From: an uncultured archaeon
GTDB taxonomy: Archaea > Asgardarchaeota > Jordiarchaeia > Jordiarchaeales > Jordiarchaeaceae
Assembly: GCA_964510585.1 (NCBI GenBank)
Contig: CAZECW010000212.1
Location: 13,122-45,121, forward strand
Direction: 5' to 3'
Length of the DNA: 32,000 nucleotides
A program made the translations under genes and the position numbers. The notes beneath the pieces are model-generated. The model was given only the letters and a program-made list of their open reading frames with translations, was not told the DNA's origin and did not search any database. Positions 22,322 through 24,890 of the stretch are shown here, piece after piece (positions within the stretch are counted from its first letter, which is position 1; each line of letters begins with the position of its first letter).

Positions 22322-23236
22322 TTATTTTGTTTTTATGGTTCTGAGGTATTCGGTCATTCCTGTTCCCACTTCGCCGGTTTCTTTGCATTCCATTATTGCC
22401 ATTTGTTCGAAGAGTTCGGTGTATCCTCCCGGAAAGTTTCTTGCGAATCTTAGGTAGGTGTTTTTTCCCAGTAGCTTGGATTTGACTGTGAAGGTGTTTC
22501 CTTTTATGTCTGTTATGTGGTATGTTGATGTGAGTGGGGTTTGAAACTGGTCGTTGTCGTTGATGGTTTCTATTTCCACTTTTGCCAGGGGGGTGTTTCC
22601 ATTTTTTGTGGATACCGATCCGGAGAGGTCTATGCGGTTTCCTTGGTGGTCTTTTCGGAAGGCGCAGCTCCAGTCCCGGAATTGTATGTGTGTGGCGTAC
22701 CATTTGTCGAATTGGTGCCAGTCTCTGTAGCCCCAGCTTTTGTCGCGTTGTCCGTAGCCTTTGAAGCTTCTTTTTGTTCCGTCATTATACTTTATGGTGC
22801 CGTTTACTTTTCCTGAGGCTTCGAAGTGGCCGTGCCAGGAGGCTGAGCTGTCTCTGCCGAAATCGTATGTGGGGAAGCGGGTTTCCCACGTTAGCCTGAA
22901 TTCTAGTTTGGGGGTGGTGTATAGTATTTTCCATGTTTGGAATGGTTTGACCAGCTGGTATGTGAGGATGTTGTCTGTGAGCATTTTGTTGATGTCTTCC
23001 ACGTAGCTTTCTAGTGGGGGCTCCTGGTAGTGTACCTCCATTTTGTCATCTATGAAGAGTAGGAAGACGAATTCTCTTCTCTTCTCGTTGGGCAGTATTC
23101 CAATGGTTGTAAAGCCGGAAACATTGTTTTCAGCGTCTACCCAGTTGAAGTAATAGGATTCCCGCCATTTCTGCCTTTCATCAGGCCTATGAAGCAGCTC
23201 GTCAGAATCCATAAGGCTTGGGGATTTACCAACCAT
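22322..23236 (-). CDS. Uncharacterised protein, probably of the AttH/CrtC/tocopherol-cyclase-like beta-barrel group
   Basis: Trp/aromatic-rich, beta-strand-like sequence with WRESYYFNW, HFEASGKVNG and GQRDKSWGYRDW motifs. The family assignment is recalled pattern similarity only. Confidence 0.6.
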   Translation of the reverse strand: MVGKSPSLMDSDELLHRPDERQKWRESYYFNWVDAENNVSGFTTIGILPNEKRREFVFLLFIDDKMEVHYQEPPLESYVEDINKMLTDNILTYQLVKPFQTWKILYTTPKLEFRLTWETRFPTYDFGRDSSASWHGHFEASGKVNGTIKYNDGTKRSFKGYGQRDKSWGYRDWHQFDKWYATHIQFRDWSCAFRKDHQGNRIDLSGSVSTKNGNTPLAKVEIETINDNDQFQTPLTSTYHITDIKGNTFTVKSKLLGKNTYLRFARNFPGGYTELFEQMAIMECKETGEVGTGMTEYLRTIKTK

Positions 23237-23482: not shown

Positions 23483-23623
23483 ATGGAAGAAAAAGTAAAA
23501 AAGGAAGTAGTAAAATCGGCAAAAAAGTTGGTAACAAAAGAAGTACAGAAACAGTTGGGGATTAAACCAAAGCAGAAAAAGCGCAAAAAGAAGGCAAAAA
23601 AAGTAGAAGTATACTACTATTAA
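23483..23623 (+). CDS. Putative 46-aa lysine-rich small protein (MEEKVKKEVVKSAKKLVTKEVQKQLGIKPKQKKRKKKAKKVEVYYY)
   Basis: ATG...TAA frame below the ORF-track cutoff. GGTG lies about 11 nt upstream and a TTATAAAA box about 50 nt upstream. 17 of 46 residues are Lys. Confidence 0.5.
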   Translation: MEEKVKKEVVKSAKKLVTKEVQKQLGIKPKQKKRKKKAKKVEVYYY

Positions 23624-23769
23624 AATCCAAAAAATGTTTTTATGCGGACACCAAAAAAGACAAAAAAGTCGCCCAACATGTGAATTCTCTGGATTCAGAA
23701 TAAGTTTCTTTGTTTTACCTGCAAGAAAGGTTTCCCCCTTATACTTCATAACAGTTTCCAAATACTGGG

Positions 23770-23965
23770 ATAGGCTTCCTGTGTTCTTTTTGACACTCTC
23801 CGCGACTAAAGTCGGGAGATTCTTGCTTCTGGCTCATCGGGAGCCTTCGAAGCAATGGGTGTGCCACCACCCAGTTAACACGCCCTTCCCTTTAGGGGAA
23901 CTGCGTCTATGTTGGCACCCTCATGGGGGCTGCGTCTTGTTTAGCCCCTTAAGCCCAAGCCAAAC
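23770..23965 (-). ncRNA. Putative TnpB omega-RNA/reRNA-like structured RNA (scaffold about 23965-23790, guide about 23789-23770)
   Basis: At least five short stems plus the right-end hairpin, ending in TCAA. The position matches reRNAs at IS605 right ends. Expression and boundaries are inferred. Confidence 0.5.
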
Positions 23966-24065
23966 CCTTCAGCTACCAACAACTATTTATATACCCTACT
24001 TTCAAATAAGCTTTTTGGCGATTCATCCCCACAACTAAAGTCGGGGGCTTTCTCGCCAAGGTTTT
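23790..24065 (-). mobile_element. Non-autonomous IS200/IS605-family mini-element (PATE/MITE-like), with no tnpA or tnpB
   Basis: Minus strand left end: TTAC|AAAACCTTGGCGAG-AAAG-CCCCCGACTTTAGTTGTGGGG. Right end: GAAT-CTCCCGACTTTAGTCGCGGAG-AGTG-TCAA. Both are subterminal imperfect hairpins sharing a GACTTTAGT core, with IS608-like guide/cleavage tetranucleotides. Confidence 0.85.
23984..23993 (-). promoter_or_regulatory. Archaeal TATA box inside the mini-element, pointing toward the right end
   Basis: TATATAAATA on the minus strand, preceded by purine-rich GAAAGTAGGG. It lies just inside the left-end hairpin, where the tnpB promoter would be expected. Confidence 0.5.
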
Positions 24066-24182
24066 GTAAATTTTTACAATGGGAGGTAATAAATATTAAG
24101 TATGCATCCCTCATGTTTTGGGTTTAGAATTTTTTTAAGGAAGGCTTGTTTTGGGAAAAAGGCTTAAAGTGAGAAAGGTGCT

Positions 24183-24890
24183 TTATTTTCGGCATAGAAC
24201 AAAGGTGATGGCTCCTTCCTTTATGCCAAGTCTCATAGATTGGAATCTTTTGAAGCCCAGTTTGGACAATTTTTTAACCAAAACATATTTGGGAAGAGAG
24301 GTGGAGAAGATGAATTTTCCTCCCTTTTTTGTAACCCGGTATATTTCTGCCAGTGCTTCGTCTCTTCCAATTAGTAGGGTGTCTAGCACTTCGTGGCAGG
24401 CGACTAGGTCAAAGGTGTTGTCGTCGAAGGGAAGCTTTCGTGCGTCAGCTTGCTGAAATTTGACTTTGTGGGATACACCTTCTATTTTAGCGTTTTCCTC
24501 CGCGTGTTCCATGGTGTTTCCGCTGACACCTGAGAGACTAAGTGGGGACCAGGTGTCTATTCCTATTACCTTGCATTTCTTGCAGGCCTTTGCAAGAGAT
24601 ATTGCCACCAATCCTCTACCTGTGCCAACATCCAACATTAAAGAATTTTCCTTAGGCTGAGCGAATTCCACAAGCAAAGTACTTTTCTTAACTCTAAGGG
24701 GAGTAGTGCTCTCATAGAACAATAACCCAACAATCATTGCCAACGCAATTACAATCACCGTGAAAATATATCTTACAACCAAATCATTAACAATGAGGTA
24801 AAGGATGAAACATAAAATAATTCCAAATAGGAGAAGACTCAAAATAAGCGGGGAATAAACTCCGTAACTTACATGTTCTTCCTCGGTCAA
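24183..24890 (-). CDS. Class I SAM-dependent methyltransferase with two N-terminal TM helices
   Basis: Motif I LDVGTGRG, QADARKLPFDDNTFDLV and EIYRVTKKGG, with a hydrophobic N-terminus. Confidence 0.88.
   Translation of the reverse strand: MTEEEHVSYGVYSPLILSLLLFGIILCFILYLIVNDLVVRYIFTVIVIALAMIVGLLFYESTTPLRVKKSTLLVEFAQPKENSLMLDVGTGRGLVAISLAKACKKCKVIGIDTWSPLSLSGVSGNTMEHAEENAKIEGVSHKVKFQQADARKLPFDDNTFDLVACHEVLDTLLIGRDEALAEIYRVTKKGGKFIFSTSLPKYVLVKKLSKLGFKRFQSMRLGIKEGAITFVLCRK

Follow-up and report, generated by a model that had tools for sequence, protein, structure and literature searches.

Introduction

Palindrome-associated transposable elements (PATEs) were first named in 2011 in Haloquadratum walsbyi (PMC3119063), and the PATE-like elements of Geobacillus stearothermophilus are reported to "often encode omega RNAs" (omega standing for obligate mobile element-guided activity), for which TnpB is needed in trans (PMC10055086). 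An expressed PATE-derived RNA, VNG_R0052, was described in Halobacterium salinarum in 2015 (PMC4615843), and the sense overlapping transcript RNAs (sotRNAs) make up RF02656 and RF02657 in Rfam (PMC12558985). A universal layout has been proposed for TnpB omega RNAs and Cas12 guide RNAs, in which three consecutive stem-loops lie upstream of the guide and the first of them, the 'nexus', is pseudoknotted with the 3' end of the scaffold (10.1101/2023.11.20.567912). Here we analyze a 276-bp mini-element in a 32,000-nt stretch of DNA (contig CAZECW010000212.1, below C212, of assembly GCA_964510585.1; the whole stretch is called the window) from a hot-spring Asgard archaeon of the Jordarchaeia/Freyarchaeota lineage. 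The mini-element (24065-23790, minus strand) encodes no protein and is non-autonomous; it is a PATE or miniature inverted-repeat transposable element (MITE) derived from an IS608-like insertion sequence (IS) of the IS200/IS605 family. The DNA runs that contain most of the locus are all hot-spring metagenomes.

Like the PATEs, the mini-element is gene-less and multi-copy, has subterminal hairpins at both ends, retains the omega-RNA region and would be mobilised in trans. It is unlike those described in its Asgard host, its number of copies (at least 68 in 3.8 Mb), a putative archaeal TATA-box promoter kept from tnpA and a family-specific internal module of ~70 nt. With VNG_R0052 and the sotRNAs it shares the fusion of a left end to a right end in an archaeal genome and a predicted structured RNA near the right end that corresponds to the tnpB 3' end; it differs from them in having no Rfam match, in being known from its sequence alone, and in a TnpB of a different clade with a rearranged RuvC-II site. 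As in the omega RNAs (or right-end element RNAs, reRNAs) of ISDra2 and the IS605/IS607 IStrons, stem-loops B, C and D stand directly upstream of the boundary, the first loop pairs with the 5 nt before the boundary, and the guide would come from the flank (10.1101/2023.11.20.567912). Unlike those RNAs, it has a further hairpin of two tiers, A, on the upstream side; its last stem-loop doubles as the TnpA-binding right-end hairpin, and no tnpB lies in cis. The difference from IS608 itself is plain, since the mini-element measures 276 bp and lacks both tnpA and tnpB. PATEs whose omega RNAs serve in trans have been published before, as has an archaeal PATE RNA that is expressed (PMC10055086; PMC4615843), and that picture is unchanged by our results; what is new is a comparative RNA model, the decay of the TATA core in over half of the copies and the finding that the two flanks of the window copy are not ancestral neighbours.

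Results

A blastn search with this part of the window against its own genome (3.78 Mb, 217 contigs) returned 144 high-scoring segment pairs (HSPs), among them 30 full copies of the mini-element at 84-97% identity. When these 30 copies were aligned with their flanks, the borders proved sharp, running from TTAC/AAAACC... on the left to ...GAGAGTGTCAA/ on the right (the slash marks the border; consensus TTAC/AAAACCTTGG... to ...GGAGAGTGTCAA/), and the sequences outside were unrelated. TTAC precedes 29 of the 30 copies, TCAA ends all of them, and the flanks show no relation to each other. Insertion 3' of TTAC without target duplication, together with a fixed TCAA right end, is as expected for the IS200/IS605 family. 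The segments 23797-23821 and 24026-24050 form a direct-repeat pair (80% identical), each able to form a hairpin and both in the same orientation, which is the signature of IS200/IS605 ends and not of inverted-repeat transposons. Immediately 5' of the left and right hairpins lie AAAG and GAAT, and the cleavage sites are TTAC and TCAA. This set of tetranucleotides, at these positions relative to the hairpins, is the same as in Helicobacter pylori IS608, as is insertion 3' of TTAC without duplication. No protein gene lies inside the 276 bp; the overlapping open reading frames (ORFs) all cross the borders, and only relic codons of a TnpB C-terminus remain.

Of the 144 HSPs, 91 touch contig ends, and most of these stop ~140 nt into the element; the mini-element is thus the main cause of assembly fragmentation. 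Right-end junctions with at least 20 nt of flank numbered 74 by motif count, of which 68 were MITE-type and 4 belonged to a full-length type described below as IS-A. A dispersed set of potential guides, at least 68 MITE-type junctions each with its own flank, therefore exists in this genome.

The parents of the mini-element were sought with the Pfam families Y1_Tnp, OrfB_IS605 and Cas12f1-like_TNB and then by tblastn. Two related full-length elements, IS-A and IS-B, were identified in the same genome. IS-A is present in ~4 copies that the assembly has split: the left end, a 129-aa TnpA and the TnpB N-terminus are found on contigs C169, C7, C162 and C15, and the TnpB C-terminus with the right end on C8, C45, C54 and C152. 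The left end of the mini-element is 89-93% identical to the IS-A left ends beside tnpA on C169, C7 and C162, and the last 99 nt of IS-A are 78% identical to those of the mini-element. The tnpA genes on C7, C169 and C162 match PF01797 with 113-129 bits; the TnpA on C169 (18588-18974) matches the Pfam model over its full length, has the HLH and SY motifs, and looks intact. IS-B (C81:5075-6787) has an open tnpB frame (C81:5075-6352), whose 426 codons include two that precede the likely Met start. Over 42 nt the right ends of IS-B and the mini-element are 93% identical, and in the 29-nt segment encoding ...NWVVAHPLL... the IS-B tnpB is identical to the mini-element at 27 of 29 positions. From these matches to the tnpB 3' ends and right ends of IS-A and IS-B, which cover its last 97 nt, the last ~100 nt of the mini-element correspond to a tnpB 3' end plus right end. 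In hairpin B and in the stem that closes hairpin C the mini-element is identical to IS-B, but its left end is of the IS-A type. The IS-B tnpA (C81:6362-6787) is degenerate, with its HUH motif replaced (GYIQLF), and forms a single open frame of 571 codons with tnpB; the left-end hairpin of IS-B is unlike its own right-end hairpin.

Covariation showed the last ~122 nt of the mini-element to be a predicted omega-RNA scaffold of four covarying hairpins with a pseudoknot joining the nexus to the 3' end (Table 1). Homologs of the IS-B TnpB were sought in 151 genomes of the phylum, 29 of which had one at E <= 1e-20. The tnpB 3' ends of these homologs have a common layout, consisting of a hairpin A of two tiers, TTAAC, hairpin B (whose loop, GUGGCA, is nearly invariant), hairpin C, AGAAUC, hairpin D and GUGUCAA. 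The loop of hairpin C ranges from 5 to ~70 nt among relatives, and because of this length variation MAFFT with RNAalifold alone missed the hairpin; a covariance model (R1) with a hand-given structure was therefore built from nine tnpB 3'-end sequences. R1 gave 36 matches in 50 sources and matched the window once, at full length, on the minus strand at 23790-23910 (95.7 bits).

Table 1. Features of the mini-element and its surroundings; positions are those of the window.
Feature	Position	Strand	Remark
TTAC target site; left cleavage site and expected TnpB transposon-associated motif (TAM); part of the flank, not of the element	24066-24069	minus	flanks diverge upstream of TTAC
Left end: AAAACCTTGGCGAG, AAAG (24051-24048), subterminal hairpin CCCCCGAC-TTTA-GTTGTGGGG (24047-24027)	24027-24065	minus	direct-repeat copy of the right-end hairpin
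TATA box TATATAAATA	23984-23993	minus	putative retained tnpA promoter
Leader/internal module, family-specific, including the GGGGCT/AGCCCC stem (23926-31/23943-48)	23912-23983	minus	no homolog in IS-A or IS-B
Scaffold hairpin A: outer stem ACGC/GCGT, inner stem TTCCC/GGGAA (23886-90/23896-900)	23880-23906	minus	helix 1
Scaffold hairpin B, 'nexus': TGGGTG-GTGGCA-CACCCA (23856-61/23868-73)	23856-23873	minus	helix 2; also encodes relic TnpB C-terminus NWVVAHP
Scaffold hairpin C: TTGCTTC/GAAGCAA around GGCTC/GAGCC	23824-23854	minus	helix 3
GAAT (23822-19) and right-end subterminal hairpin D, TCTCCCGAC-TTTA-GTCGCGGAGA (23797-23819)	23797-23822	minus	helix 4
GTGTCAA tail; the hairpin-B loop TGGCA (23866-23862) has its pseudoknot partner here, TGTCA (23795-23791)	23790-23796	minus
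TCAA, right cleavage site	23793-23790	minus
Flank AAAGAACACAGGAAGCCTAT, would-be guide	23770-23789	minus	flanks differ among all copies directly past TCAA
Direct repeat CTGCGTCT	23901 and 23930
Methyltransferase gene (flank)	24183-24890
DUF7065 gene (flank)	22322-23236

Two sets of sequences were used to measure covariation. In set 1, comprising 35 distinct sequences from the TnpB loci of the phylum, 88.7% of the pair cells held standard pairs against 63.8% in column shuffles; 25 of the 29 pairs changed on both sides, and there were 205 double-change cells where 65 were expected. When the 3' partners were shifted by 1-3 columns, the paired fraction of set 1 fell to 45-52%, and the slid controls of both sets stayed below 59%. 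Set 2 comprised 65 sequences from an exact-pattern scan for the right-end 35-mer, with hosts among Methanoculleus, Methanomethylicota, Archaeoglobi, Bathyarchaeia, Nitrososphaeria, Aenigmarchaeota and Hermodarchaeum; it also takes in contigs of the Jordarchaeia/Freyarchaeota genomes of set 1, and the two sets are not fully independent. Here 95.3% of cells were paired against 81.1% in shuffles, with 203 double-change cells against 57; helix D is fixed by the selection pattern in this set, and helices A-C still covary.

All seven pairs of helix 1 showed compensatory changes in both sets (85% and 92% of cells paired). For helix 2, 94-96% of cells were paired and four to five of the six pairs had double changes, and for helix 3 the corresponding values were 88-90% and five to seven of seven pairs. 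The five base pairs of the pseudoknot between the nexus loop and the 3' end (UGGCA with UGUCA) were formed in 99.3% of cells with four double changes, and none of 1000 shuffles reached either value. Its terminal A-U pair is replaced by G-C in two sequences and by C-G in two, and its central G.U pair by A-U or G-C in seven. The 35-nt right-end pattern itself was found in at least 63 contigs (loci L093-L155) from Jordarchaeia, Freyarchaeota, Hermodarchaeum, Methanoculleus, Methanomethylicota, Archaeoglobi, Bathyarchaeia, Nitrososphaeria, Aenigmarchaeota and a few bacterial metagenome-assembled genomes (MAGs). This distribution across phyla points to a wide horizontal spread of one IS family.

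An original prediction, made from the letters of the window, had placed a promoter and an omega-RNA-like scaffold at 23770-23993. The stems, TATA box, direct repeat, right-end hairpin, TCAA and flank that it listed are all present where it put them. Its features were correct and its extent was not: the repeated unit is longer (24065-23790, with a second hairpin at 24047-24027), and the conserved scaffold is confined to the 3' 122 nt (23911-23790), which match tnpB 3' ends from many archaea. The internal deletion that it proposed, keeping the transposase promoter region and a complete omega-RNA-type scaffold, agrees with the homology to IS-A and IS-B, with model R1 and with the covariation, and the TnpB with matching ends that it called for is encoded elsewhere in the genome, as is a TnpA with matching ends. 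The expected covariation of the stems among homologs was recovered for four helices and the pseudoknot in both sets. The GGGGCT/AGCCCC stem, specific to a subset of the copies, has no counterpart in the tnpB-linked relatives and is not conserved; 23 of the 30 copies carry an A.C mismatch in it, and it is perfect in seven, the window copy among them. The suggested comparison with sotRNA covariance models gave no match: no Rfam family, RF02656 and RF02657 included, matched the window at gathering thresholds. At E <= 10, region 23700-24150 gave two chance-level matches, to unrelated families only. As a single sequence, the minus strand of 23770-23993 folds at -83.6 kcal/mol (z = -3.7), and 1 of 200 shuffles was as stable. 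A long-range stem of this fold, between element positions 87-96 and 151-160, is upstream of the point where transcription is expected to begin and was not counted in the RNA.

Since the host is an archaeon, an archaeal TATA-type promoter is the right reference, and a bacterial sigma-70 and terminator scan is uninformative. Measured from the left end, GGTATATAAATAG of the mini-element and GGTATATTGATAG of IS-A stand at equal distances, the latter starting 29 nt before the tnpA ATG, and the TATA box TATATAAATA is likewise in register with its IS-A counterpart, TATATTGATA. By homology and position we infer that this TATA box is the retained tnpA promoter. The 29-nt spacing from TATA to ATG fits an archaeal TATA box with a leaderless or near-leaderless tnpA mRNA. 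Were transcription to begin ~25 nt past the box (near 23968-23965), the RNA would have ~55-60 nt of leader ahead of the scaffold. Contrary to the prediction, promoter and scaffold are thus not fused directly; that phrase better fits a ~210-nt MITE in a same-genus genome (G004), where almost nothing separates the tnpA TATA region from the first scaffold base and the internal module is missing. The internal module (23983-23912) had no blastn similarity to IS-A or IS-B and no exact 21-mer match in 185,579 species genomes. In-frame relics in it (GANI) weakly suggest decayed tnpB RuvC-III codons. Gene-less elements of left end plus scaffold also occur in a Bathyarchaeia MAG (L119:4958-5380, minus strand) and a Methanomethylicota MAG (L133:88-520, minus strand); these two have a common internal module that resembles decayed tnpB zinc-finger/RuvC-III codons.

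A promoter at this position might serve the neighbourhood instead, so that the mini-element would act chiefly on adjacent host genes, as a mobile outward-reading promoter or small regulatory RNA, and not in its own retention. The TATA box does point out through the right end, with no terminator-like site after it (in a bacterial-type scan that is uninformative for archaea), the DUF7065 gene follows 550 nt downstream on the same strand, and selection against read-out may, at some sites, lie behind the concentration of changes in the TATA core described below. The parental tnpA promoter accounts for the same structure, however, and we regard an effect on neighbours as very doubtful.

Polymorphism within the element peaks at the TATA core. 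Thirteen of the 30 full copies, including the window copy, have the exact box, and the others carry variants such as TACATAAATA, TATGTAAATA, TATACTAATA and TATACCAATA or, in two copies, have it replaced outright. At seven positions the window copy departs from the family consensus, one of them a private change that opens a pair of hairpin A. Variants common to at least five copies, counted over 65 right-end halves, were found at 7 of 33 unpaired but only 2 of 84 paired scaffold sites (Fisher p = 0.002); of the two at paired sites, one is partly compensated and the other is accompanied by an insertion that restores pairing. Singleton mutations in the same halves are spread evenly over stems and loops. 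Together these patterns suggest that lineages that kept multiplying kept their stems, whereas resident copies decay neutrally. Counts of G.U against A.C, taken as a test of strand, were 32 vs 19 and 28 vs 22 and not decisive.

This variation bears on the simplest alternative, in which the mini-element is an inert hitch-hiker, moved by TnpA and nothing more, whose scaffold persists by descent from the founding deletion, neither transcribed nor used by TnpB. The even singletons, the mutated TATA core in 17 of 30 copies and a per-column diversity that is similar across all regions of the element are what such a passenger would show. It accounts less well for propagated variants that avoid paired positions, and for three differently built mini-elements (the 276-nt family, the ~210-nt element of G004, and those of Bathyarchaeia and Methanomethylicota) that each keep the whole scaffold from the first hairpin onwards, when TnpA should need the terminal hairpin region only. 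Furthermore, a PATE RNA is expressed in another archaeon (PMC4615843). We consider an inert passenger possible, although on this evidence rather unlikely.

The TnpB clade that matches the scaffold, that of IS-B, has Gly at the canonical Glu position of RuvC-II (motif IVxGDL; 20 homologs aligned). D185, E324 and D358 are invariant in the 18 homologs scored, IS-B included. Across the clade (C81:5075-6352; loci L064-L092) an invariant Glu lies 47 residues past the Gly, matching the published 'RIIr' class, and the Asp that follows the Gly gives way to Arg or Asn in IS-B (which has R) and its two closest relatives. A change from Glu to Gly that is compensated by an alternative Glu has been described as a rearranged, probably active RuvC site (Altae-Tran et al. 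2023, PMC10691335).

Every 16-nt guide was compared with the genome, and no second target was found apart from one TTAC-adjacent allele (the flank of the C12 copy, on C154) and two short duplications. At an occupied site the flank that matches the guide is preceded by TCAA and not by TTAC, which makes the empty donor joint, and not a host gene, the expected target. On the minus strand of C75, near 15962, the flank of the C62 MITE (C62:12658) recurs over 52 nt, and there the sequence matching the guide is preceded by TTACAA, in which two extra A follow TTAC.

These observations give no support to two suggestions of the original prediction, a nuclease-dead TnpB partner and the regulation of host loci, which in combination would make the copies a domesticated guide library for a TldR-like protein that represses host loci. 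The clade does lack the canonical RuvC-II Glu (the G of IVxGDL), and IS-B has in addition R for the following D. The Gly with an alternative Glu is, however, the published rearranged active configuration (PMC10691335), and together with the invariant D185, E324 and D358 it leaves no ground for a nuclease-dead partner. Additionally, the TnpB genes of IS-A and IS-B lie inside IS ends, no guide has a second TTAC-adjacent genomic target except the single allele on C154, which resembles an empty site, and TCAA precedes the flank of every occupied site. A repressive library of this kind is thus extremely improbable.

In runs X3 and X5, from a strain that differs by ~2-3% in the flanks, the right-flank contigs extend past 23789 through 13.9 and 20.8 kb of DNA foreign to the window, the left-flank contigs carry 3.8 and 13.4 kb of other DNA ahead of 24066, and the MITE is at neither junction. 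In the same-genus genomes G002-G005 the flank genes (Table 1) are on different contigs or, in a closed genome, ~460 kb apart. Thus the two flanks are not ancestral neighbours, and either the MITE mediated a rearrangement or contig C212 was mis-joined through the repeat. The junction of right end and flank, and hence the putative guide, is unaffected by this uncertainty of linkage. One contig of the four hot-spring runs carries a variant of the mini-element with a 90-nt internal deletion. On the DUF7065 side, a 46-aa lysine-rich ORF (23483-23623, plus strand) ends 166 nt before the right end of the mini-element, and a 144-aa ORF on the minus strand (23761-23327), Phe/Leu-rich and antisense to it, looks spurious.

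The C12 copy offers a second case. One empty-type TTAC/flank junction was found for it, with a different left flank. A Joint Genome Institute (JGI) contig, L173, joins the left flank of C12 through the MITE (2098-2377) to C154 (1-2321), which runs on for 1.98 kb to a TTAC and then into the flank that abuts the right end in C12 (C12:8676-8955). Two arrangements are thereby seen, B-MITE-Z(1.98 kb)-TTAC/A' and B-MITE/A, the latter having lost Z exactly up to the TTAC. The pattern resembles the outcome of an adjacent deletion that runs from the right end up to the next target site, or of recombination between two copies.

Discussion

In the present study, we describe a mini-element that has lost both genes of its parent and has kept the parental ends, a putative promoter and a complete predicted guide-RNA scaffold. 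We favor the reading that it is a guide-RNA element served in trans, mobilised by TnpA and supplying an RNA that is used by TnpB, and we put the probability of this reading at roughly 60%. TnpA from full-length IS-A copies would move the mini-element as single-stranded DNA. Transcription from the TATA box would start near 23968-23965 and yield an RNA of ~195 nt, which TnpB may trim to the scaffold plus 16-20 nt of flank. After excision, a TnpB acting in trans (from IS-B on C81, or from IS-A) would cut the empty site TTAC+AAAGAACACAGGAAGC, and repair of the cut site from a sister copy would restore the mini-element. A retention model with the empty donor joint as the target of TnpB has been published (PMC10055086).

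Several points weigh against this proposal. The tnpA of IS-B is degenerate and its left end is unlike that of the mini-element, and the tnpB of IS-A is only partly assembled, which leaves both as no more than candidate sources of the TnpB partner. No RNA run containing the element or the locus was listed, and the contigs of the four hot-spring DNA runs contain no empty-site joint (23789/24066). Seventeen of the 30 copies have a changed TATA core, and many copies may thus be silent; in the window copy itself, a private C-to-A change breaks one pair of hairpin A. Singleton mutations were as frequent in stems as in loops and gave no sign of selection on individual resident copies. It is also important to realize limitations of the covariation, since the alignments were fitted to the model, which biases them towards the structure, and the sequences are interrelated. 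Finally, helix D is also the DNA hairpin bound by TnpA, and it would be conserved for that binding alone.

A further-reaching version of the trans-served reading is that the ~70 promoter-equipped copies constitute a dispersed array of trans-acting guides for a RuvC-II-rearranged TnpB, with a gene-drive-like retention, and that their right ends additionally drive TnpA to join them to the next TTAC, producing adjacent deletions and rearrangements. Joining of this kind would explain the non-ancestral flanks of both the window copy and the C12 copy. We offer this extended scheme as speculation, and think it unlikely to hold in full.

As a practical consequence, the mini-element breaks contigs in this MAG more than anything else and possibly causes mis-joins as well. 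The omega-RNA model could aid annotation and the choice of compact, probably thermostable TnpB/omega-RNA pairs. Overall, the window copy is a well-supported case, from an Asgard archaeon, of a transposon derivative reduced to its guide RNA, and comparison with its relatives provides a structural model of the omega RNA of a TnpB clade with a rearranged RuvC-II site, present across many archaeal phyla.

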